The notes: generated from the letters alone by a model not told the origin. A stretch of 64,000 nt of DNA from Candidatus Latescibacterota bacterium (GCA_965248355.1 OZ252098.1:4128001-4192000), one strand, 5' to 3'. Shown: positions 2,899 to 64,000, counted from the stretch's first letter. Program-made: numbers and translations.

Positions 2899-3959
2899 TC
2901 GGCCTTCGCCCGGACCCGGTCACGCGCCTTCGCCTGCGCCGGTTCCGGCGCATCCGCCGAGGCTATTGCTCCTTCCTGATCCTGTTGGGTCTCACGGTCC
3001 TGTCCCTGTTCTCCAACTACATCGCCAACCGGCGGGCCATCGTCGTCTGCCATGAGGGGGAGATCTACTTCCCCACCTTCCGCTTCCATGACATGGCCAC
3101 CTTCGGCCAGCAGGACGAGTACGGGTTCGACGACGTGGAGGCCGACTACGCGGCGCTGCGGACGCAGTTCGAGGAGGCGGCCGCCGGCGACTGGGTGTGG
3201 ATGCCGGTGGTGCCCTTCGACCCCTACGAGCCGGACTTCAGCTATGACGATCCGCCGCCGAACCCCCCGGATTCGCGGCACTGGTTCGGCACCGACTCCC
3301 AGGGCCGGGACGTCTTCGCCCGGCTGCTCTACGGTTTTCGCATCTCCATCCTCTTCGCCGCCGCCCTGGTCTTCACCGGCCAGACGGCGGGCACCGTCAT
3401 CGGCTCCCTCCAGGGATTCGTGGGCGGCCGCTTCGACATCCTCAGCCAGAGGTTCATCGAGATCTGGTCCACCCTGCCCTTCCTGTACGTGGTGATCCTC
3501 CTGGCCACCTTCTTCAAGCCCAGCTTCGGGCTGCTGCTGGTGATCATGGGCCTCTTCGAATGGATCCGCATGACCTACTACATGCGCACCGAGATGTACC
3601 GGGAGAAGACACGCGACTACTGCCTTGCGGCGCGTTCCTTCGGTGCTTCGCGCTGGCGGCTCATCTTCCGCCACCTGCTGCCGAACTGCCTCACCCCCCT
3701 GGTGACGATCACGCCCTTCGCCGTGGTCGGCGCCATCAGCGCCCTCACGGCCCTGGACTATCTCGGGTACGGCCTGCCGGCGCCGACGCCGAGTTGGGGG
3801 GAGATGATCGACCAGGCCCTGGACAGCCAGAACCGGGACAAGATCTGGCTCTCCGTGGCCCCCTTTTCCGCCCTCTCCGTAACCCTGGTGTTGGTCACCC
3901 TCGTGGGCGAATCCATCCGCGAGGCCTTCGATCCCAAGCAGTACGCCCACTACCGCTAG
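2895..3959 (+). CDS. Oligopeptide ABC transporter permease (OppC/YejE-like)
   Basis: GTG start overlapping upstream TGA; HWFGTDSQGRDVFARLLYGFRIS, PTPSWGEMI. Confidence 0.92.
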   Translation: MIGLRPDPVTRLRLRRFRRIRRGYCSFLILLGLTVLSLFSNYIANRRAIVVCHEGEIYFPTFRFHDMATFGQQDEYGFDDVEADYAALRTQFEEAAAGDWVWMPVVPFDPYEPDFSYDDPPPNPPDSRHWFGTDSQGRDVFARLLYGFRISILFAAALVFTGQTAGTVIGSLQGFVGGRFDILSQRFIEIWSTLPFLYVVILLATFFKPSFGLLLVIMGLFEWIRMTYYMRTEMYREKTRDYCLAARSFGASRWRLIFRHLLPNCLTPLVTITPFAVVGAISALTALDYLGYGLPAPTPSWGEMIDQALDSQNRDKIWLSVAPFSALSVTLVLVTLVGESIREAFDPKQYAHYR

Positions 3960-51219: not shown

Positions 51220-52758
51220 TTGGCCGAGAGACCGTACCGGATCATCTACAACTGGGATGGCGCCCCCCACCACTACGACGAGCACCCCCAGGCGATGGAG
51301 TCCTTCCTGCGGAGGGTCTATGCCCCGCTGGCCGGCACCCAGGTGGACGCCCTGTTCTGGTGCATGGGGATCCACGAGGCCACCTGGCTGTCCGACGACC
51401 TGGCCGTGAAGGGGGATTCCGCCGCCCGGGTCTACGACAGCGTGCTGGTCATGAGGGATGTCGAGAACCTGCGGTCCATGCTCGAGGGGGGCGAGGATCC
51501 GTACGCGGCCATGGTCGCCCGGGGGCGCGAGCTGGGCATCGACGTCTGGCCTTCGATCCGCATGAACGACCAGCACTTCTGGAACATCCAGGACCTGGAG
51601 ACGATGCAGCGGTCCACGGTCAACGAGATGACGGCGCTGCGCAAGGAGCATCCCCAGTGGTGTCTGGGGGAGCACGCCCCGGGCTGGTGCGCCACCTCGT
51701 GGAACATGGCCGTCCCCGAGGTGCGCGCCCACAAGCTCGAGATGATCACGCAGGCCTGCCGGCTGGCCGACTGGGACGGCGTCGAGCTGGACTGGCAGCG
51801 CCACGCCTTCCACCTGCCCGCCAACCACGAGTACCGGCTGCGCTACGCCCTCACCGACCTGCAGCGGGCCGTGCGCGAGATGACCCGGGGGCTGGCCGAG
51901 GAGCGGGGCCGGCCCTTTCCCGTGGCCGTCCGCGTCGCCGCCACCCTGGAGTCCTGCCGGCGCGTCGGCTACGACATCGAGACCTGGGTCGAGGAAGGCC
52001 TGTGCGACATCCTCATCGGCGGCGGCAACTCCGGCACCGATCCGTGCTTTGAAACGGAGGAATTCCTGAGACTGGTGGAGGGCACCCAGATCCAGGTCTA
52101 TCCGGGCTTCGACTTCGACACCCGGCAGCAGGCTGACCGCCTGATCCCCCACGGCCGCTGGCGGGACCGCTGGTTCGCCGGCATGGCGCAGGGCCACCTC
52201 GACCGCGGCGCCCACGGCATCTACGTCTTCAACTGGCACGCCGACGAGACCATGCGCCGGGAGTCGTTGACCACGATCGGTTCCACCGGGACCCTCCGCG
52301 GCCTGGACAAGGCCTACACCGCCGTGCACCGCAGCACCGGCGGGAACCCCCTGCGCAAGGACGCCGAGCGGGACGACCGCATCTACGGCGAGGCCCCCGT
52401 CGACCTGCACCGCACCCTGACCGGCGACGGCCCCACCTTCCACCTGACCACCCACGATCCCGGGGCCGCCGGCGTGCAGCTGCTGATCGAGATGGCCCAC
52501 CACTCCCCCACCGGCGACGAGGTGGCCGTAACCCTGGACGGCGCGGTTCTGGGCGCGCCCGAGGTGCGCAACCACGTAGCGGAGAATCCCCAAAACCCCG
52601 CCGACGTGGACGAGAACAGCTGGCTGGTGTGGGACCTGGATCCGGCCCAGGCCGCCTCCGGGGCCCACGAGATCCAGGTCGTCCTGCTCAAGCGGGATCC
52701 GCGGATTCGGCCGCCGCTGACGGTGGCCAACGTCGAGATCTGGACGAGCCATGACTGA
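51220..52758 (+). CDS. GHL10-like TIM-barrel putative glycoside hydrolase (tandem paralog)
   Basis: Same motifs as the upstream gene, including identical ADWDGVELDWQRH and LTGDGPTF. Confidence 0.65.
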   Translation: MAERPYRIIYNWDGAPHHYDEHPQAMESFLRRVYAPLAGTQVDALFWCMGIHEATWLSDDLAVKGDSAARVYDSVLVMRDVENLRSMLEGGEDPYAAMVARGRELGIDVWPSIRMNDQHFWNIQDLETMQRSTVNEMTALRKEHPQWCLGEHAPGWCATSWNMAVPEVRAHKLEMITQACRLADWDGVELDWQRHAFHLPANHEYRLRYALTDLQRAVREMTRGLAEERGRPFPVAVRVAATLESCRRVGYDIETWVEEGLCDILIGGGNSGTDPCFETEEFLRLVEGTQIQVYPGFDFDTRQQADRLIPHGRWRDRWFAGMAQGHLDRGAHGIYVFNWHADETMRRESLTTIGSTGTLRGLDKAYTAVHRSTGGNPLRKDAERDDRIYGEAPVDLHRTLTGDGPTFHLTTHDPGAAGVQLLIEMAHHSPTGDEVAVTLDGAVLGAPEVRNHVAENPQNPADVDENSWLVWDLDPAQAASGAHEIQVVLLKRDPRIRPPLTVANVEIWTSHD

Positions 52759-52820
52759 GGCCGTGTCGAAACCCACGTACCGCGCCGCCATCATCGGGGC
52801 CGGCCGCATGGGCGGCCTCC
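52751..52820 (+). pseudogene. N-terminal stub of a Gfo/Idh/MocA oxidoreductase cut by the group II intron
   Basis: ATG overlapping the upstream gene end; MTEAVSKPTYRAAIIGAGRMGGL Rossmann GxGxxG, then intron GTGCG. Confidence 0.75.
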
Positions 52821-54758
52821 GTGCGCCGGTCACACCGGCGAGGTGTAAGATGTGAAAGTCATCTGTGTCGAAGGTGTAGCGAACCACGACAGCCCCGAGT
52901 CATGCGTCGGTGCGGGTAACCGTAGTGGCGAAGCGTTGGCAGGGGGAGGTGTAGGTCCGGTATTGAGCCGCGAAAGCCATGAACCACTCCGGGAGGCCGA
53001 GACGGTGGAGGACGAGCGAAGGCCATACCTGACGCTGCGATATCGCGAGCGGTGTCGGGCTCCCGCGCGGTCAGAGACCCGGTGCATGCACCCAAGCACC
53101 TCGTGCGGGAACCGGGAGGTCCCGCGCCTGGCCCGGCCGGATGGCGGCCGGGTCCGCAAAAGGAACCCGTTCAGGGGACACTGGCGATGAACGGGCGCGG
53201 GAAGTCGGACAGCCCCATAGTACCTGCGAAGCCCTCGAACCAAGGCCGCGCGGCTGCGACGCGGCCGGCGGAGGGGGTGGAGGGAAGGGGGGGTTGCCCA
53301 AGGGCAACTCGGGCGAGCCCACCAGGTCCCGGACGCAGAGCCGGTCCGACCTGCAACAAGCGCTTGACCGGGTGCGCCAGGCAGCGGTTCGAGATCGGAA
53401 GGGGCAGTTCACGGCGCTCTGGCACCACGTCTACTGTGTGGATCGTCTCCGGCAGGCCTACTTCGGCCTGAAGCGCAACGCCGCCCCGGGGGTGGACCGC
53501 GTGACGTGGCACAGCTACGGCGAGGATCTGGAGGCGAACCTGACAGATCTGTCGGCGCGGCTGCGACGCGGAGCCTATCGAGCCCGGCCGGTGAGGCGGA
53601 CCTACATCCCGAAAGCGGATGGACGGCCGCGGCCCCTCGGCGTGACCGTGCTGGAGGACAAGATCGTCCAGCGGGCCACCGTGGAGGTGCTCAACGCCGT
53701 GTACGAGGCCGACTTTCTCGGATTCAGCTACGGTTTCCGCCCGGGACGCTCGCCGCACATGGCGCTGGACGCGCTGGCGGTGGGGATCCAGCAGCGGAAG
53801 GTGAACTGGGTGCTGGACGCAGACCTTCGTGGCTGCTTTGACGCCATCGACCACGATTGGCTGATGAAGTTCGTCGAGCACCGGATCCGCGACCGGCGCG
53901 TCCACCGCCACCTGAAGAAGTGGCTGAAGGCGGGCGTGCTGGAAGAGGGGCAGTGGCGGCAGGTGGAGGCGGGCGTGCCTCAGGGGTCCAGTGTAGGCCC
54001 TTTGTTGGCCAACGTCTACCTGCACTACGCCTTCGACCTGTGGGCCCAGGACTGGCGGCGGCGGCACGCGAGCGGGGACGTGGTCCTCGTGCGCTTCGCC
54101 GACGACATCGTCTGTGGGTTTCAGCAACGGTCGGATGCCGAACGCTTCCAAGCCGAGTTTCGCGTACGCCTGGCGAGGTTCGGCCTGGCGGTGAACCCCG
54201 AGAAGACGCGCCGGGTCGAGTTCGGCCGCTTTGCGGCGGCCAATCGACGGCGGCGCGGCGAGGGGAAACCCGAGACCTTCCACTTCCTCGGCTTCACGCA
54301 CAGTTGCGACAAGACGAAGAAGGGGAGGTTCATCGTGCTTCGGCAGACCCAGAAGACGCGCATGCGGCGCAAGCTGAAGGAGGTGAAAGCCGAACTTCGG
54401 CGACGGCTGCATGACCCCGTAGACGACGTAGGAGCGTACCTGCGGAGCGTGGTGGTCGGGCACTTCCGTTACTATGGGGTGCCTCGTAACGGTCCGGCGT
54501 TGAGCTCGTTCCGCCATGCCGCGGTCTGGCTGTGGTGGCGTAGCCTTGCAGCGACGGACCCAGCGTCACCGATCGCATCGCAAGCTCCTGCGGCGTTTCC
54601 GCGTATGGGTCGCGCACTTCATCCCCTCGGCGCATATCCTCCAGCCCTATCCCGAGCAGCGCCTGCGCGTCATGACCCAAGGGAGGAGCCCAGTGCGCTA
54701 ACCGCGCTCGCTGGGATCTGTGGAGGGGGCTGTGGGCAACCATGGTCCCTACTCCGAC
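52821..54758 (+). mobile_element. Group II intron, copy 1 (IIB-like, En-minus)
   Basis: 5' GTGCG; domain V GAGCCCAGTGCG...CGCTGGGATCTG at ~54686; domain VI ending CCCTACTCCGAC at 54758; RT ORF in domain IV. Confidence 0.93.
53187..54701 (+). pseudogene. ltrA: Group II intron reverse transcriptase/maturase with apparent frameshifts
   Basis: APGVD, YIPK.DG..RPLG, SYGFRPGR, VLDAD, GVPQG, RFADD, FLGF; frame breaks at the G7 run ~53287-53293 and at ~54548 (C-terminal PYP in another frame). Confidence 0.88.
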
Positions 54759-55692
54759 TTACGCTTCCGCTTCGATTTCGTCGATGAGTTCCTTGAGACG
54801 AGCATAGTTCGTCCGCATCGCATCGACGGGGGAACCACCGGGGGGACGGAAATGGGTCGCCACCGCCAGCACCGCGTCGCATCGGTAGTCGCGCAATTGA
54901 CGCAGGACCGCTCTGAAATCCACATCCCCATCGCCGATGGGACGGTACTCGAATTGCAGATGCTCACCATCGGCGAGGTGCAGGTCCTTTGATGTGGAGC
55001 CCGTGCAGATATGGCCGCACATTGTCGAAACCGGCAGAGGTCACATCCGCCTCGCCGCAGTTGAGGTTGTCGGCCGGACCCCACATGACCTTGATTCTCG
55101 GTGAGCCGACGCTTTCCGCAACGCGCCGGAAGTTCCCGGTCGTGTTGGTGTAATTCCAGGGCATCATGGAGAGGGCAACATCGACGTCGTATTTCTCGGC
55201 TTGCTCCACGACCAGCGAGAACGCCTTCACCAGTTTCTCCATATCCGCATCGGCGATGATGCCACCGCGGGTGTGCCAGCGCATCGGCCAAGTGGGCTTG
55301 CCGCCGCCGTACTCCCCGGGCCAGGCAAAGGTGAACGAACAGACAGCGCCGACTCCCAGGCGGGAGGCGATCTGCATCGCGCGGACCAGATTGTCGAAGT
55401 CACAGCGGAATTCCGGATGCTCCTGCATCCCATCCAGGTCGAGCTCGGTCAGGTGCACCTTCTTGAACGAGTTTTCCGCCGCTATGAGGTGGAGCTTGAG
55501 GCCGTGGTTGGACACGCGGGCAGCCATGTCGTCTACCTGGGCATCGGTCATTTCGGCGATCGGGGTCTCATCGCGCAAGCGCGGGAACCAGACGTACTCG
55601 GCACCGATATCCTTCGCCGTAGCCAGGGCCTGGTCAAAGGGCAGGTCCAATTCGGGTAAGTACATGCCGAGCTTGAACCGGTAATCTGCCAT
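54759..55692 (-). pseudogene. Sugar phosphate isomerase/epimerase (xylose-isomerase-like TIM barrel) with a 1-nt frameshift
   Basis: AGGAGG RBS; LHIK / DLH broken at ~54988; IGDGDVDF in the second frame; stop TAA at 54759 abuts the intron 3' end. Confidence 0.8.
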
Positions 55693-55811
55693 CAGTTACC
55701 TCCTGAACGTAGTGGGTGAAGACGCCGATCAGGTCGCAATTGCTCCCTCCTGTTCAAGCTAGCGTTTGAAATTGAATCGCCCCGAGTTTTCCGGAGACTC
55801 GGTTGTTTGAG

Positions 55812-57034
<1,223 letters not shown>

Positions 57035-57257
57035 GACTCCAATCCTCTCAAGAAATGGAGCCTCCGGCAACCCCGGGGCGGTTCACTCGACGGGAGGCGA
57101 GGGTTTTGGTGACTTCGCCTCTCACGAGGGTCAGTTGATCCTCAACCGGGATCGCACCTGGCCGCGGGCGGGAATGCGCCTACGGCCGCGAGGGGACTGA
57201 GCCTCGATCGGAGGCGAGGGCTTCGGCTCTCGCCTCTTTCTTGTTCTGCCCACGGAC

Positions 57258-57468
57258 CGACAGACCGATACGAGTGCAGAGCTTGCTGTGAGGGCTTTGT
57301 GCAGGGAAGTTGGATTGGCCTATCGGATCAGCAACCGTGACCTTCCTGGAAGCCCAGACATAGCCAACCGATCCAAGAAATGGGCGATCTTCGTCAACGG
57401 ATGTTTCTGGCATGCCCACCGGAACTGCCGTCGCCTTGCCCCGGGCCGCGACCACACGCCAAGGACTA
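57258..57468 (+). pseudogene. Vsr (very short patch repair) endonuclease fragment
   Basis: RQTDTSAELAVR, LPGSPDI, IFVNGCFWH; cut by ISAzo13. Confidence 0.7.
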
Positions 57469-58766
57469 AGGCTTTGTCCCGAAACAGATGATTCACTTCA
57501 ACCCTCAGTGGCCGGCCGGATCGTGTAGTTCCAATCCCCGTGGAACGCATGGGGCGAGAGATGGATCCGCTCCATTTGCTCGTCCTTGACGACCACGGCC
57601 TTGGGATACGCTCGCTTGTCGATCTCGGCGCGCACGCGAAGCCCTTTCTTCGTTGTCGTCCGGCCGATCAGGTTGACTACCGTGGCCAGACTGACCAGAG
57701 GTTGGCCTCGCCAGTTCATGGCGATATAGGAGAACAGGCGATGCTCGATGCGGTTCCACTTGCTCGTGCCCGGAGGATAGTGGCAGACCGTGATCGTCAG
57801 GCCCGTGCGATCGGCCAAGCGCTGCCATTCCCATTTCCACAGCCGCAGTCTCGGACCGTTGCGGCCCCCCGCATCGGCCGTGATCCACAGGTGCGAGGCC
57901 GCCGGGTAGGCCGGACGACCCATGCGTTTCCACCAGCTGCGGATGGCGTTCACCGCGAAGTGGGCGGTGTCGTGGTCGACGCCGACGCTGACCCAGCCCT
58001 CGTTGCGGCCCAGGTCGTAGACCCCGTAGGGAATCGCCTGGCCCTGGGCCGGGATGATGAAGTCGTGGACCTTCACGCGCTCCGGCTCGCCCTTCGGACG
58101 CCATTGGCGACCCACGTTCTTGAAGTCGCCGATCAGCTCCTTCTTCTTGGTGTCCACCGAAATGACCGGCTGGCCTTGGGCCTGGGCCCTTCGGACCTGG
58201 TCGTGGAGGTAGTGAAACGGGGCGTCCCGATCCGGGTGTTGCGTGCCTTCTTTCGTCTTGCGATTCGCCTGCAGCGTGTAGCCGAGCTCGTGCAACAGTC
58301 CGTGGACGAGGCCAGGACTCACCGAATGGCCCAGGGCCTGCAACTCGACCGCCAACTTGCGGACGCTCTTCGACGTCCATCGCAAGGGGCTGTCGTCCGG
58401 CGCCCCGGCGGTGACCGGCTCGAGCAGGGCGTTGAGGTCCGACAACAGCGTCACGTCGGTGTCGACGCGCCGCTTGCGGCCGCCGCCCGGCCGACGCACA
58501 CGGCCGGAGTCCAACGGGGCGTCCGACCGCAGTTCCTGCAGGCCGCGAGCGATCCGGGTCCGCGACAGGCCCGTCGCACGGGCCACCACCGCAATGCCGC
58601 CATGTCCCAGGGCTTGCGCCTCCGACGCGGCCCACAAGCGTCGCGTGCGCTCGTTCAACACCGGCGTCAAGGCTTCGTATTTCGCCCGCAGGGTGCTTTC
58701 CGTGTCCACCCGTCAAGGATAACACCTTTCTATCAGAAAGAACAGCGTTTATTTCTGCGCAGTGCC
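57469..58766 (-). mobile_element. ISAzo13 family insertion sequence
   Basis: Imperfect TIRs GGCTTTGTCCCGAAAC / GGCACTGCGCAGAAAT, flanked by TAA on both sides. Confidence 0.8.
57498..58709 (-). CDS. ISAzo13 transposase
   Basis: LNERTRRLWAA, RRPGGGRK, ISVDTKKKE, YPPGTSKWNRIEHRLFS, FHGDWNY. Confidence 0.92.
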   Translation of the reverse strand: MDTESTLRAKYEALTPVLNERTRRLWAASEAQALGHGGIAVVARATGLSRTRIARGLQELRSDAPLDSGRVRRPGGGRKRRVDTDVTLLSDLNALLEPVTAGAPDDSPLRWTSKSVRKLAVELQALGHSVSPGLVHGLLHELGYTLQANRKTKEGTQHPDRDAPFHYLHDQVRRAQAQGQPVISVDTKKKELIGDFKNVGRQWRPKGEPERVKVHDFIIPAQGQAIPYGVYDLGRNEGWVSVGVDHDTAHFAVNAIRSWWKRMGRPAYPAASHLWITADAGGRNGPRLRLWKWEWQRLADRTGLTITVCHYPPGTSKWNRIEHRLFSYIAMNWRGQPLVSLATVVNLIGRTTTKKGLRVRAEIDKRAYPKAVVVKDEQMERIHLSPHAFHGDWNYTIRPATEG

Positions 58767-59014
58767 TAAGTGGTTGATTGCGTTACGTGGTCCGGCAGCG
58801 GTGACCCGACGAAGATGATGTCGACATCGCTGCCCAGGAGATCCTCGAACCGGGTATAGGCCTGGGGAATATTGTACCTGTCGGCGATGGGCCGAACGGT
58901 CTCTTCGTGGCGGGTGCAGAACGCCGCCACCTCCGTCTCCGGCATCACCCTGAAACACTGGAGTGCCCCTTCCCCGCGCTTGCCCACGAATCCGACCTTG
59001 AGTGGCAGGTTCAT
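58766..59014 (-). pseudogene. Gfo/Idh/MocA oxidoreductase truncated by ISAzo13
   Basis: ATG coupled to upstream TGA; LKVGFVG, DVDIIFVGSP.P.H then ends at the IS end. Confidence 0.75.
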
Positions 59015-60048
59015 CAGACGTTGTCTCCAAACTGTTCGATGCTGGCCGGCAACTCGCCATCGGGCAGGTAGAAGTCCGCGCTCAAATCTACGGCGACCGG
59101 CTGATTGGTCTGCATCGCTTCCACCGCTTTTTCGACGATGAGCGTGGGGATGCAGGCTTCCCAAACATCCATGGGGCTTTCACCACCGTCAAGGCAGTAC
59201 TTCGCAAACATCTCCATCTCTTCATCGAAGCCGTTGTGATAGGCATTCTCTTCGATGCCAGGCTCATCGGTTCCCTGGAAGATGAGATTGCCAAAGCGGA
59301 CGGTCGCGGCGCTGATCGGTCCGGCCATGACCTCGGCGTAATGCTTGGGCAGATATCCACCCTGGCCGACGACGCCGTACACGGAGGTGGCGAGCCCGCC
59401 GTTGGCGAAACGGATATTGATAGTGCTGGTGTTGCTCGGTTCACCACCGTACCCCATGGCGTTGATTTCGACCGGCTGTGAACGCATGACATGCCAGATC
59501 CAGTGGAGGTTGTAACCGGCCGCATCGAGTACGCCATTGCACCCCAGGGGCCCCTCGGGATCATTCGGTTTGGCGTTCTCGTAGCGCGTGCTCGAGAGTC
59601 GGCACAGGAACAGGACGAAATACGGTTGAGGGATGACCTCGCGCAGTCGTTTGGTAACCGGTGAGTGTTTGAACCACCAGCCACCCATGAGCTTGACTCC
59701 TGACTCGTGGACGGCCTGCTGCAGACGCCGGGCTTCGTCGAGGGTGATGGCCAACGGTTTCTCGGCGTAGATGTGCTTGCCGGCGGCGCAGGCGTCGATC
59801 GCTATCTCGGCGTGGGTATCGTGAGTCGAGAAGATGAGGACCGCATCGATGGAATCGTCCGCGAGGACGCGCTCCATGTCGGTGGTGTGGTAGGAGGCGC
59901 CGTACTCCTCCGCACGACGTCGAGCAGCCTCTTCCGAGATGTCCATGGTGGCGACCAGGTGCATGTCGGGTGACTCGAGCACCCTTGGCAGGTGGGCGCC
60001 GCTTATTCCGCCGCAGCCGATGGCGGCCACATTGAGACGGGTGGTCAT
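59014..60048 (-). CDS. Gfo/Idh/MocA family oxidoreductase
   Basis: IGCGGI, IDAVLI, AGKHIYAEKP; GGAG RBS at 60057-60054. Confidence 0.9.
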   Translation of the reverse strand: MTTRLNVAAIGCGGISGAHLPRVLESPDMHLVATMDISEEAARRRAEEYGASYHTTDMERVLADDSIDAVLIFSTHDTHAEIAIDACAAGKHIYAEKPLAITLDEARRLQQAVHESGVKLMGGWWFKHSPVTKRLREVIPQPYFVLFLCRLSSTRYENAKPNDPEGPLGCNGVLDAAGYNLHWIWHVMRSQPVEINAMGYGGEPSNTSTINIRFANGGLATSVYGVVGQGGYLPKHYAEVMAGPISAATVRFGNLIFQGTDEPGIEENAYHNGFDEEMEMFAKYCLDGGESPMDVWEACIPTLIVEKAVEAMQTNQPVAVDLSADFYLPDGELPASIEQFGDNV

Positions 60049-60189
60049 GACAGCTCCGTGCGCCGGCTAAACCGGCGAGGTGTAAGATGTGAGAGTCATC
60101 TGTGTCGAAGGTGTAGCGAACCACGACAGCCCCGAGTCATGCGTCGCGTCGGGTAACCGACGAGGCGAAGCGTTGGCAGGGGGAGGTGT

Positions 60190-61585
60190 GAGGTCGTGTC
60201 AAAAGGTGTGTAAACGAGATCAGGCGGCCCTCTTGTTCCCTTCCCTGGTAGAGGCGTCCTCTTGGATCGGTTTTCCGTCCTGGTATCTCCGACCGGCGTA
60301 GACCGCCGGCAGGAGCTCGGGCGCGTTGAGCTTGCGGAATCGTGTCTCGGCCACCCTCAGCAGGCGCCAGATGAGGGCGGTGGCCCCCTGGACTCGCTTG
60401 TAGCGCTTGCCCGCGTTGGTCCGCAGACGGACCGAGGCAAAGGGGCTCTCCACCGGGTTCGTCGTTCGCAGATGTTTCCAGTGCGCCTCCGGGAAATCGT
60501 AAAACGTGACCATGCGATCCCAGTCGCGCTCGAGGGTGGCCGCCGCGGCCGGATAGGCCTCGCCGTAGCGAGCCACGAAGCGATCGCGTCGTCTCTGGGC
60601 TTGCTGACGGGTCTTGGCCGTGGGGATCTGCGTCAGCAGCGCCCGGGCGGCGCCCTGCACGCGCTTGGGCAGGTCGTCGAGGACGTTGAGGATCTTGTGA
60701 TTCCAGCAGCGCTGCTGCGCGGCCTCGGGCCAGACCTGGTCGACGGCGCTCCAGATCGGCAGGCCGCCATCGGCCAGCATCAGGCGCGGCGCCGGCAGCC
60801 CGCGGTCGCGAAGATCGCGCAGCACGGCTCGCCACGACTCGGTGGACTCGCGATGGCCGGGCCGTATCGCCAGGATCTCCTTGCGGCCGTCGCTCAGGGC
60901 CCCGATGACGACCAGCAACGCCGCCTTGTCCTTCTCCAGGCCGGCCTTCACGTAGATGCCGTCGGCCCAGGCGTAGACCAACTCCCGGTCGTCCAGGCGC
61001 CGCTGCTGCCAGGTCTCGAACTGCTCTTCCCAGGTGGCCCGCAGACGGGCGATGGACGAGGGCGACAGAGGCGCCCCGTCGCCCAGCAGGCCCCGCAAGG
61101 CCAGCTCGAAGTCGCCCTGCGACAGCCCGTGCAGGTAGAGTTCGGGCAGCAGCCGGGTCACCTCCTGCGTGCGTCGCTGGAACAGCGGCAGGATGCGGCT
61201 CTCAAAGCGCTCCTCCAGGCCTCGAATCCGCGGCCGTCTCACCTCGATGGGGCCCGACATCAGCGCCAGCCGCCGCGGCTTGCCGTAGCCGTTGCGCGAG
61301 CCCGGGGCGTCCACCGCCGACCGGCGCGCATACCGCGTACGCCCGAGCGCTTCGGTCACCTCCTCCTCCAGGATCCGCTGCAGCAGGTCCTGGATCCAGC
61401 CCCGGACCCATCCTTCCAAGGTCTCCCAGGTGGGCATGGACGCGCGGGGGATCTCCAACATAGATTCCTTCACGGCGACTCTCTCCTTCCAAGCCCGGCG
61501 TCATCCGGGCGGTTTGTGGTGTGCTGCTAAAATAGGAAGGGTAGGGTCGCCTTTTCTCTTTTTCCACACCTTTCGATAGTAACTC
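60190..61585 (-). mobile_element. IS256 family insertion sequence
   Basis: Imperfect TIRs GAGGTCGTGTCAAAAGGTGTG / GAGTTACTATCGAAAGGTGTG; 8-bp target duplication GGAGGTGT (60182-60189, 61586-61593). Confidence 0.92.
60220..61473 (-). CDS. IS256 (Mutator-like) transposase
   Basis: RNGY, LYLHGLS.GDF, WADGIY, QRCWNHK, LRTTNPVES. Confidence 0.93.
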   Translation of the reverse strand: MKESMLEIPRASMPTWETLEGWVRGWIQDLLQRILEEEVTEALGRTRYARRSAVDAPGSRNGYGKPRRLALMSGPIEVRRPRIRGLEERFESRILPLFQRRTQEVTRLLPELYLHGLSQGDFELALRGLLGDGAPLSPSSIARLRATWEEQFETWQQRRLDDRELVYAWADGIYVKAGLEKDKAALLVVIGALSDGRKEILAIRPGHRESTESWRAVLRDLRDRGLPAPRLMLADGGLPIWSAVDQVWPEAAQQRCWNHKILNVLDDLPKRVQGAARALLTQIPTAKTRQQAQRRRDRFVARYGEAYPAAAATLERDWDRMVTFYDFPEAHWKHLRTTNPVESPFASVRLRTNAGKRYKRVQGATALIWRLLRVAETRFRKLNAPELLPAVYAGRRYQDGKPIQEDASTREGNKRAA

Positions 61586-62030
61586 GGAGGTGTAGGTCCG
61601 GTATTGAGCCGCGAAAGACATGAACCACTCCAGGGGGCCGAGACGCTGGAGACCGAACGAAGGCCATATCCGGCGCCGCGATATCGCGAGTGGCGCTGGG
61701 CCCCTGCGCGGTCAGAGACCCGGAGCATGCACCCAAGCACCTCGTGCGGGAGCCGGGAGGTCCCGCGTCTGGCCCCGGTCGATGGCGACGGGGTCCGCAA
61801 AGGGAACCCGAATAGGGGATACCGGCGATGAACGGGCGCGGGAAGTCGGACTGCTCCGCAGTACCTGCGAGCCGGAAGTGTACCCCGTCAACTGGACAGG
61901 AATTGGGCTTGTACAAGCGAGAGTCTCGAGATGTAATGGAGCCGTACTGCGCCCCGGCGCTGGGACCGAAGCCCCGCCTCCCGGACTTGCACCCAGGCCG
62001 GGCCACCGAGGCCGTGAGGAGCCCCCGCGC

Positions 62031-62858
62031 TCAGGCCGCCCGGTGGTAGACATCGCTGGGGGTCTCGTAGTCGAAGGCCTGGTGCGGCCGCTCGAGGTTG
62101 TAGAAGCGGAAGTAGGCCGCCACGCCCTCGATCAACTCGGGGACGCTGTCGTAGGCCTTCAGGTAGATGTCCTCGTACTTCAGGGAGCGCCACAGCCGCT
62201 CGATGAAGATGTTGTCCAGCACCCGGCCGCGGCCGTCCATGCTCACCCGGGCCCCGGCCGCCTCGACCCGCCCGGTGAAGGCGGTGCTGGTGAACTGGGC
62301 CCCCTGGTCGGTGTTGAAGATCTCCGGCCGCCCCTGGCTCAGGGCTTCCTCCAGGGCCTCCAGGCAGAAGGCCGCGTCGAGGGTGTTGGAGACCCGCCAG
62401 GCCAGCACGTAGCGGCTGAACCAGTCCATGACCGCCACCAGGTAGACGAAGCCGGAGGGCATCGGCAGATAGGTGATGTCGCTGCACCACACCTGGTCCG
62501 GCCGGTTCACGGTCACCCCTCGCAGCAGATACGGATAGACCCGGTGCTGAGGGTTGGGGGTAGTCGGTCGCGGCCGGGGATAGATCGCCTGCAGGCCCAG
62601 GGCCTTCATCAGGCGGTGCACGCGCTTGGGATTGACCGGGTAGCCGTCCCGCCTCAGGGCCGCGCAGATCCGGCGCACGCCGTAGACCGGGTGCTCGGTG
62701 TAGATCCGGTCGATGGCGTTCATCAGGTCGAGGGTGAGCCGATCCGGCGCCTCCGGGCGGTAGTAGAAACTGGAGCGGGCCAGCCCGAGCAGTTGGCACT
62801 GCCGATGCACGCTCAGCGGGCCGGGGTGCGGCTCGATGAGGGCGCGGCGCTCAGCCAC
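62031..62858 (-). CDS. IS3 transposase OrfB
   Basis: [38 protein letters not shown]. Confidence 0.92.
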
Positions 62859-63144
62859 CGAGAGCCTCGTGTTTTTTTTGAAGCCACTCCAGTTCCATCT
62901 GCAGCCGCCCGATCTGCTGGTAGAGCTCGGGCACCAAGGCGGCCTCGTCGTCGGCCCGGCGGGTCCCGGGGCCCCGGAAGACCTCGGGCAGCCGCTCCAG
63001 CAACTGCTTCTTCCAGCCGTGGATCTGGCTGGGGTGGACGGAGAACTTGTGGGCCAGCTCGTTGACTGTCTGCCGTTCGCGCAGAGCCTCCAAGGCCACC
63101 TTGGCCTTGAACTGCGCCGAATGCGTCTTGCGTTTCCTCGTCAT
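62851..63144 (-). CDS. IS3 transposase OrfA
   Basis: [34 protein letters not shown]. Confidence 0.92.
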
Positions 63145-63222
63145 CCAAGCCCCTCCGGACAGTGGGTCGGTGGACGCAAAGTCTCGCTTAGCCACCTGTC
63201 CAGGATTTGGGGTACACTACCG

Positions 63223-64000
63223 CCCTCGAACAACGGCGGCGTGGCTGTCACGGCGCCGGCGGAGGGGGTGGAGGGAAGGGGGCAGCCCAAGGGCAACTCG
63301 GGGGAGCAAACCAGGTCCCGGGCGCAGATCCGGAGCGACCTGCAACATGCGCTCGACCGGGTACGTCAGGCAGCGGAACGTGATAGGGAACAGCAGTTTG
63401 CGGCGCTCTGGCACCACGTCTACCACGTTGACCGACTTCGGGAGGCCTACCTCGGCCTCAGGCGCAAGGCCGCACCGGGGGTGGACGGCGTGACGTGGCA
63501 CAGCTACGGGAAGGATCTGGAGGCGAACCTGACAGATCTCTCGTTGCGGCTGCAACGCGGAGCGTACCGAGCCAAGCCGGTGAAGCGGACCTACATCCCG
63601 AAGGAGGATGGACGGCAGCGGCCCCTCGGCGTGACCGTGCTGGAAGACAAGATCGTCCAGCGCGCCACCGTGGAGGTGCTCAACGCCGTGTACGAGGTCG
63701 ACTTTCTCGGTTTCAGCTATGGTTTCCGCCCGGACCGCTCGCCGCACATGGCGCTGGACGCGCTGGCGGTGGGCATCCAGCAGCGGAAGGTGAACTGGGT
63801 GATCGACGCGGACATTCGAGGTTGCTACAATGCCATCGACCACGAGTGGCTGATGAGGTTCGTCGAGCACCGGGTGAGCGACCGGCAGGTCCGGCGGCAC
63901 ATCAAGAAGTGGCTGAACGCCGGGGTGCTGGAAGAAGGGGAGTGGCGGCGAGCGGAGGAAGGTGTGCCGCAGGGCTCCAGTGTCGGGCCCTTGCTGGCCA
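63223..64000 (+). CDS. ltrA: Group II intron RT/maturase of copy 2, partial (5' part cut by IS3; runs off the window)
   Basis: APGVDG, YIPKEDG.QRPLG, SYGFRP, VIDADI, GVPQG. Confidence 0.88.

Follow-up and report, generated by a model that had tools for sequence, protein, structure and literature searches.

A stretch of 64,000 nt from the genome of a Candidatus Latescibacterota bacterium (hereafter the window, in whose coordinates positions are given) carries two copies of a group II intron. They belong to a family in which exon-binding site 1 (EBS1) resembles a Shine–Dalgarno (SD) sequence and which very probably targets ribosome-binding sites (RBSs) from the antisense side; the window would then hold one such target (site B), one decoy (site A) and a recombined cargo. 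An intron lineage with an SD-mimicking EBS1 that inserts antisense at RBSs had been put forward in an original prediction made from the window alone. The three junctions visible there are too few to exceed chance, but the family-wide counts do exceed it, and the proposal is upheld on data from outside the window. When relatives are grouped by the intron alone, those with a GGAG-type EBS1 follow a CTCC exon in 41 of 42 cases and have an antisense ATG at a spacer of 5–9 nt in 39 of 42; introns with another EBS1 have an antisense ATG nearby in 0 of 7.

EBS1 pairing and target sites

EBS1 was mapped by aligning 21 relatives over their first 340 nt. The loop originally proposed for this role, GGAGG in copy 1 (53007–53011) and GGAG(AC) in copy 2 (61648–61653), is present in both copies and is EBS1: the 6–7 nt that follow GU in this loop complement the end of the intron's own 5′ exon, whatever its sequence. 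EBS1 and exon covary in about 15 divergent relatives, with pairs such as GAGAGUCA/TGACTCTC, CGAGGAC/GTCCTCG, UCUGUUG/CAACAGA and ACAACG/CGTTGT. In 56 intron/exon pairs, the run of contiguous Watson–Crick pairs counted from the junction has a mean of 5.61, compared to 1.58 ± 0.29 in shuffled pairs, and none of 1000 shuffles reaches 5.61. In the Rfam structure of domain I, the proposed loop forms the tip of a hairpin; a candidate for EBS2, AAAGCCAUGAACCACU, is found in an internal loop just upstream. The SD sequence is carried by EBS1 in three registers (GGAGNN, AGGAGN and AAGGAG), and the register of the exon (CTCC plus 0–2 nt) agrees with the EBS1 type.

Relatives were collected by scanning metagenome contigs with a pattern taken from intron nucleotides 5–38, which yielded at least 120 stretches. 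Family counts are drawn from the matches listed, 111 stretches with an intron-like 5′ end and 9 chance matches. The 111 stretches, 8 genome-derived copies and the 2 window copies give 121 junctions. Junctions that differ at more than 6 of the last 24 exon positions were counted separately, which leaves 100 of the 121 as non-redundant; upstream sequence of 100 nt or more is available for 94 of these. Locus L215 (genome G054) was left out. An open reading frame (ORF) was accepted as evidence of a gene if it spans at least 60 codons, or if it runs off the fragment after 25 or more open codons.

Among the matches listed, the 5′ exon ends in CTCC, CTCCN or CTCCNN (including CTCCT and CTCCTT) in 69 of the 94. 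An antisense ATG is located 5–9 nt beyond the GGAG in 66 of these 69 CTCC-type sites, and in 57 of the 69 there is ORF evidence in addition to the ATG. Control GGAG sites in the same flanks have the ATG in 18 of 336 cases and the ORF in 10 of 336 (Fisher p = 5e-55 and 9e-47, respectively). Both the flank consensus and the enrichment of antisense starts by which the original prediction could be judged are in evidence. Genome-wide in G000, such an ATG accompanies 5.4% of 87,708 GGAG sites (both strands) and 7–11% of SD-like 7-mers. The spacer is 5 nt at 12 sites, 6 nt at 14, 7 nt at 19, 8 nt at 10 and 9 nt at 3, with one site each at 2, 10 and 18 nt; spacers of 5–9 nt fall within the usual SD-to-AUG range. 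The start codon at the target sites is ATG in 59 cases and GTG in 2. The first base of the 3′ exon is T in all 8 CTCC-type copies with both junctions in hand, so that in the sense of the gene the intron sits at A|(A)(A)GGAG and leaves the SD and the ATG intact.

The targets are real, unrelated genes. Pfam hits (E ≤ 1e-4) were obtained for 25 of 49 antisense target ORFs and fall into 20 different top families, which include glyoxalase, tautomerase, MIP, NmrA, TctC, cytochrome P460, ArdC, DUF736, resolvase and IS3 orfA; the Pfam domains start at the predicted N-terminus. Six further non-redundant sites in genomes of the same phylum all fit. The pattern is present in 6 of 168 same-phylum genomes (G000 included). 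The copy number per genome is low (1–5 matches in five genomes); the pattern has matches in 21 of 401 genomes of one phylum and a single match in viral contigs.

Five loci (L081, L135, L083, L147 and L144) have targets typical of plasmids or integrative elements (ArdC, DUF736, resolvase, IS3 orfA), and such locations would help the intron to spread. The start of a glyoxalase-family gene (…TTTTCATTTCGTTTCTCC…) is occupied in five loci from different samples (L071, L093, L107, L164 and L183). It is entered at three registers (after CTCC, CTCCT and CTCCTT), with EBS1 matching the register wherever it is readable, a pattern that points to one RBS invaded independently several times.

Proposed mechanism and competing explanations

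In the proposed mechanism, the intron ribonucleoprotein would pair via its SD-like EBS1 with the DNA strand complementary to mRNAs and reverse-splice into 5′-CAT-N5–9-(T)(T)CTCC|T-3′, with retrohoming as the presumed route. This would place an antisense intron directly upstream of an intact SD and start codon, where it would separate two genes from each other or an SD from its promoter. Recognition of the start codon may fall to an AUG in the EBS2 loop.

Bipartite recognition of SD and start codon is a tentative reading, slightly less likely than not. AUG is found in the EBS2 loop of 10 of 11 parsed introns of the window type and of 14 of 14 SD-type copies of a hairpin-insert type (read by eye), and this AUG is likely to make a second, weaker contact with the start codon. 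For two insertions, at site A of the window and at L091, a sense-oriented position within a gene is proven, and both are opposite GGAG-N6/7-ATG. CTCC sites that have no ORF evidence still carry the ATG in 9 of 12 cases. Sense ORFs at four possible decoy sites (L141, L155, L066 and L080) have no Pfam support. The family member at L091 (positions 1–700) is sense-oriented in a DUF1003 membrane-protein gene (E = 4.5e-9) and is inserted at ...GCCATGGCGGCCTCC|, which is nearly the same sequence as the decoy at site A.

A number of observations weigh against recognition of the start codon or against the targeting of antisense RBSs altogether. In the largest sublineage (AAGGAG/AGGAGA), the EBS2 loop lacks a conserved AUG. 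The spacer varies (5–9 nt), which speaks against a rigid contact. The best run of pairs between EBS2 and its intron-binding site (IBS2) has a mean of 4.24 versus 3.81 ± 0.13 in shuffles (1 of 500 reaches it), and many copies have only 3–4 pairs; the excess is weak, and a strong general EBS2–IBS2 pairing was rejected. The idea that CAUG pairing leaves its mark as a C in front of the ATG was likewise rejected (36 of 70 versus 51 of 126, in a rough control that contains spurious GC-rich ORFs). Some of the sites with short ORFs may be real small genes or broken genes. The same pattern also caught relatives with another EBS1 and other targets, which make up 25 of the 94. All sites are survivors in assembled genomes, and selection against gene disruption surely contributes in part to the SD-plus-ATG pattern. 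Finally, both window copies look dead, copy 2 with two insertion sequence (IS) elements and copy 1 with two apparent frameshifts.

An unlikely alternative is that EBS1 alone targets any (T)(T)CTCC, that the ATG goes unread, and that the link to start codons arises from selective loss of insertions within genes. It accords with the weak EBS2 pairing, with the absence of a conserved AUG from the EBS2 loop of the main sublineage and with a spacer distribution like that of natural SD–AUG spacing; furthermore, EBS2 is dispensable for self-splicing of IIE/IIF introns in vitro (accessible part of PMC3753933). What argues against it is that only 5–11% of SD-like 4- to 7-mers in G000 are at ATG-bearing sites, as opposed to 66 of 69 here, that both proven in-gene sense insertions carry the ATG look-alike, and that the ATG persists in those 9 of 12 sites without ORF evidence. 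In-gene sense insertions should moreover be spliceable and tolerated, yet they are rare. It is hardly credible that these are ordinary homing introns, each bound to one conserved gene start, with an SD-like intron-binding site 1 (IBS1) by accident. Sites do recur, the glyoxalase-family start being an example, and there are a few long EBS2 matches (9 bp in L078 and 7 bp in L155), but the 25 assignable targets span 20 Pfam families, 41 of 42 GGAG-type introns are at CTCC with unrelated spacers, and the introns at the glyoxalase start use three registers, to which their EBS1 corresponds.

The SD-like EBS1 might also serve another purpose, such as pairing with the 3′ tail of 16S rRNA, association with ribosomes or an rDNA target, with RBS insertions as a by-product, which we regard as highly improbable. 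CCUCC|UUA is the anti-SD sequence, and the consensus of IBS1 and IBS3, CCTCC|T(TA), matches the 3′ end of 16S rRNA, which counts for this possibility. So does the association of Ll.LtrB RNA with ribosomes (PMC3851717, accessible part). Against it, none of the printed 5′ flanks resembled the 16S 3′ end when inspected by eye, with no dedicated search made, the flanks encode diverse proteins, and EBS1 covaries with exons beyond the SD core. The chance that the window pattern is a mere coincidence of three junctions in a GC-rich genome is practically negligible: CTCC is frequent (as the number of GGAG sites in G000 attests) and one of the two supposed RBS sites in the window is not an RBS, but the family-wide statistics contradict this explanation.

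Targeting of antisense RBSs by an SD-like EBS1 is the best explanation overall; the element is of a known kind, but its target specificity is probably new. A plausible but tentative extension is that a widespread family recognises translation-initiation regions in general through an RNA copy of mRNA signals (EBS1 as SD, EBS2 as AUG) that pairs with template DNA over a flexible spacer, and that pairs of such introns can also capture foreign DNA and integrate it through recombination. If true, this would be a fourth kind of target specificity of bacterial introns and would offer a universal safe harbour ahead of thousands of genes in most bacteria. The family would be a further solution to the need of a selfish element for abundant, conserved and harmless sites, and a natural test case of how specificity arises from short, split RNA–DNA pairings. 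The coding sequence, SD and ATG are spared, while the gene is cut off from its promoter or upstream cistron, and such a split could silence or rewire genes. An outward promoter in the 5′ end of the antisense intron could keep the target gene expressed; no sigma-70-like site was found in the region inspected (L186, positions 2900–3500). The family is also a possible targetron chassis for placing cargo just upstream of any SD, and in the window two introns would have served as handles for the recombination of 5.3 kb of foreign DNA.

Intron class and relation to known introns

Copy 1 has a 5′ GUGYG, a domain V, a domain VI with a bulged A and a reverse transcriptase/maturase (RVT_1) encoded in domain IV, as expected of a group II intron. 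In most family members, the triad G of domain V faces A (GGAUC) instead of U. RVT_1 is the only Pfam domain in the intron-encoded protein (IEP), in which no HNH or other nuclease domain was found by Pfam; the same is true of two close relatives, L001 and L004, whose intact IEPs of 503 and 502 residues score above the TIGR04416 cutoff (349.6 bits versus a cutoff of 300 for L004). IIE/IIF introns are recognised by a 5-nt domain V loop that is not a GNRA tetraloop, a small ribozyme and an endonuclease-less IEP (PMC3753933, accessible part). The domain V loop of copy 1 is 5 nt long, and domain V of the relatives fits the same kind (read by eye). The ribozyme without the ORF is ~420 nt (1938 nt minus 53187–54701), slightly under the 450–700 nt range, and the IEP has no DNA-binding and endonuclease (D/En) region. 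The family consists of compact, endonuclease-less group II introns that are IIE/IIF-like by the domain V loop, with the ORF class (E, F or g1–g4) not placed against reference introns.

Group IIC (class C) introns insert after intrinsic terminators or at attC sites, and they lie downstream of a gene and in the gene's orientation. The family described here lies antisense and upstream of the gene at an SD (+ATG) motif, with an EBS1 of 5–7 nt and an EBS2-type loop, and assignment to group IIC was rejected, as EBS1 pairs over 5–7 nt and what precedes the intron is an antisense gene start and not a terminator. Both kinds are small and endonuclease-less and use a generic, genome-wide motif at gene boundaries that is kept across many hosts (accessible parts of PMC4424553 and PMC12584367). 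By the same texts, however, IIC introns read a DNA hairpin and an IBS1 of 3–4 nt, without EBS2. A specialised IIB1 clade (Avi.groEL and EcKTE56.groEL) similarly ties bacterial introns to translation signals at gene ends (PMC12584367, accessible part). According to this source, the clade occupies start or stop codons, or positions adjoining them, in particular housekeeping genes, is spliced from the gene's transcript and hence is in the sense orientation, and carries a 300–700 nt insertion in domain I. Membership in this clade was rejected because the present family is antisense, 5′ of the SD and compact in domain I; it is also found at unrelated genes, measures ~420 nt once the ORF is excluded and carries a domain V loop of 5 nt.

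The IIE/IIF introns Cl.be.I2, Pe.th.I2, Ge.ur.I1 and So.us.I2 share with the family a small ribozyme with a domain V loop of 5 nt, an IIB-like EBS1/EBS2 layout in domain I, an IEP devoid of endonuclease, and a dominant EBS1 with a weak EBS2, but the accessible parts of PMC3753933 and PMC3552965 report no SD or RBS target preference for them. RmInt1 (class D), likewise endonuclease-less, relies on base pairing for insertion, which presumably takes place at replication forks, and spares host genes; unlike the present family, with its many unrelated gene starts, it homes to a single long and specific site within the IS element ISRm2011-2 (PMC8914252, accessible part). Three target specificities of bacterial group II introns are distinguished in the accessible text of Zimmerly and Semper 2015 (PMC4424553), namely long homing sites, terminators and attC, and the only addition in the accessible part of a 2025 paper (PMC12584367) is the start- and stop-codon IIB1 clade. 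The family is apparently undescribed: no description of a lineage that targets the SD from the antisense strand was found in literature searches, whose reach did not extend to Simon et al. 2008, Dai & Zimmerly 2002 and Michel et al. 2007.

In a quick tree of 86 domain I sequences (63 of them SD-type), which is short and poorly resolved, SD-type targeting is found in three well-separated groups: the window type, the hairpin-insert type and the large AAGGAG/AGGAGA type. Between these groups there are interspersed lineages that have another EBS1. The tree requires 9 state changes, of which starred branches force no fewer than 3, and none of 500 label shuffles gives a number as low. Relatives with another EBS1 occur in tandem (L201, L216, L217 and L223; genomes G313 and G397) and as single copies (L203 and L218; G322). 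In a head-to-tail tandem with a non-SD EBS1, the 3′ end ...CCCTACCGCGAC runs straight into the GTGCGCCGG of the next copy. At L191/L194 (G003:C15), the genome's second copy is devoid of intron nucleotides ~814–1678 and has a short duplication of the 3′ end.

Window copies, exchanged flanks and cargo

The 5.5-Mb genome holds two copies only, as judged by blastn with copy 1 as the query. The Rfam model of group II intron domains I–IV (RF02005) has three matches in the window, at 52855–53080, 60092–60222 and 61576–61721, with bit scores of 174.9, 88.2 and 83.0, respectively. The first of these spans the full model (1–225), whose gathering score is 49, and belongs to copy 1 (52821–54758, plus strand, 1938 nt). 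Copy 1 starts with GTGCG at 52821, right after GGCGGCCTCC, and ends with ...CTACTCCGAC at 54758, where TTACGC comes next. Its plus-strand features are the internal loop with the EBS2 candidate (52973–52988; CAUG at 52978–52981), EBS1 (53007–53012, GGAGGA), the IEP ORF (53187–54701; RVT_1, E = 8e-39), domain V (54686–54718, GCGC-UAACC-GCGC, with the 5-nt loop UAACC) and a domain VI whose bulged A (54751) precedes the 3′ end by 7 nt. Reading through the IEP requires two frame changes, at ~53275 and ~54540, and these apparent frameshifts could be real decay or assembly (homopolymer) errors. Copy 2 (plus strand, identified from blastn pieces and RF02005) starts at 60058, right after CATGACAGCTCC, and runs past the end of the window at 64000 to the window-equivalent position 64746 (genome position 4192746). 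It aligns to copy 1 as three pieces of 92.0, 87.4 and 86.6% identity (blastn), and its plus-strand EBS1 is GGAGAC (61648–61653).

All the bases quoted in the original prediction are in place, but the joined flank of copy 1, CCTCC|TTA, which it took for a pre-insertion site, is a chimera of two sites whose real partners are contiguous in other genomes. The 5′ and 3′ exons of the two sites alternate in the order A5–copy 1–B3…B5–copy 2–A3. The 5′ exon of site A (52751–52820, plus strand) covers codons 1–23 (MTEAVSKPTYRAAIIGAGRMGGL) of a gene with its ATG at 52751 that encodes a Gfo/Idh/MocA oxidoreductase; in translation these codons form the N-terminus of a Rossmann fold. The gene resumes in frame after copy 2, outside the window at genome position 4192747, with LEDEQPPNTF... 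and 365 codons. In three same-genus genomes (L226–L228) the two flanks are contiguous as ...CATGGGCGG(C/T)CTCC|T(C/T)GAGGA..., and one of these carries an uninterrupted 381-residue ortholog (L227:1432–2577). Because the flanks are contiguous as one gene in these genomes, the CCTCC before copy 1 is not the RBS that it was thought to be; it is inside a plus-strand gene, which the intron enters in the sense orientation. A minus-strand ORF that begins at an ATG near copy 1 was dismissed as an antisense artefact, as the Gfo/Idh/MocA gene lies there on the plus strand. The exon ends in CATGGGCGGCCTCC, and the opposite strand reads GGAG-N7-ATG. Site A is an RBS-plus-ATG look-alike within a gene, a decoy that the intron occupies in the sense orientation.

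At site B, the association of copy 2 with an RBS proved correct. The minus strand reads GGAG-CTGTC-ATG at the start of a second Gfo/Idh/MocA gene (59014–60048; Pfam GFO_IDH_MocA), whose SD (60054–60057) is 5 nt before the ATG and is abutted by copy 2; the 5′ exon extends over 59014–60057 on the minus strand. The 3′ exon (54759–55692, minus strand) contains the body and end (…EAEA-TAA) of a gene for a xylose-isomerase-like TIM barrel (Pfam AP_endonuc_2). The TTA that follows copy 1 is the TAA stop of this gene and goes together with the GCTCC that precedes copy 2. Both flanks are contiguous in a genome of another genus (G424/L236), where the sequence in the sense of the gene is ...GAATAA|GGAGATATGCCGATG and the uninterrupted site is the intergenic TAA|GGAGCTGTCATG. 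Site B (TAA|GGAG-CTGTC-ATG) is a typical target, with an antisense intron between a stop codon and the next SD. The TIM-barrel gene has an apparent frame change ~70 codons before its stop codon, which, like the two in copy 1, may be due to decay or assembly errors.

The two introns are in direct orientation, are 87–92% identical and flank 5.3 kb of DNA, and the entire 11.9 kb is inside one gene. The cargo consists of the two genes of site B, an IS3 element and a transposase gene of the ISAzo13 type. The site B Gfo/Idh/MocA gene is present in G424, and a search of nine same-genus genomes with this gene as the query found no match. The cargo looks like foreign DNA caught through recombination between introns. 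Its simplest and most likely route would be a circular foreign DNA with an intron at site B that recombined with an intron resident at site A. Counting against such an event, no chimeric intron was found as its footprint in the two copies: copy 1 is L004-like end to end (88–99% identity per 100-nt window) and copy 2 is L001-like (94–97.5% identity), so that any crossover is confined to the conserved ends, the first ~90 nt or the last ~140 nt. The longest identical run between the two copies is 53 nt.

The IS3-family element of the cargo (55812–57070, minus strand; Pfam rve/HTH_21) is made up of orfB (55812–56717) and orfA (56714–57070), both on the minus strand and identified by Pfam, with a frameshift pseudoknot at 56640–56756 (minus strand; Rfam ALIL, 101.9 bits). 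The gene for the ISAzo13-type DDE transposase is at 57498–58709 on the minus strand (Pfam DDE_Tnp_ISAZ013, E = 2.1e-135). Within copy 2 there are an IS256-type element (60190–61585; Transposase_mut), flanked by an 8-bp duplication (GGAGGTGT), and another IS3-type element (61874–63221; rve) with a 3-bp duplication (GCC). Four IS elements (one IS256-type, two IS3-type and one ISAzo13-type) are thus located within 8 kb, two of them nested in copy 2.

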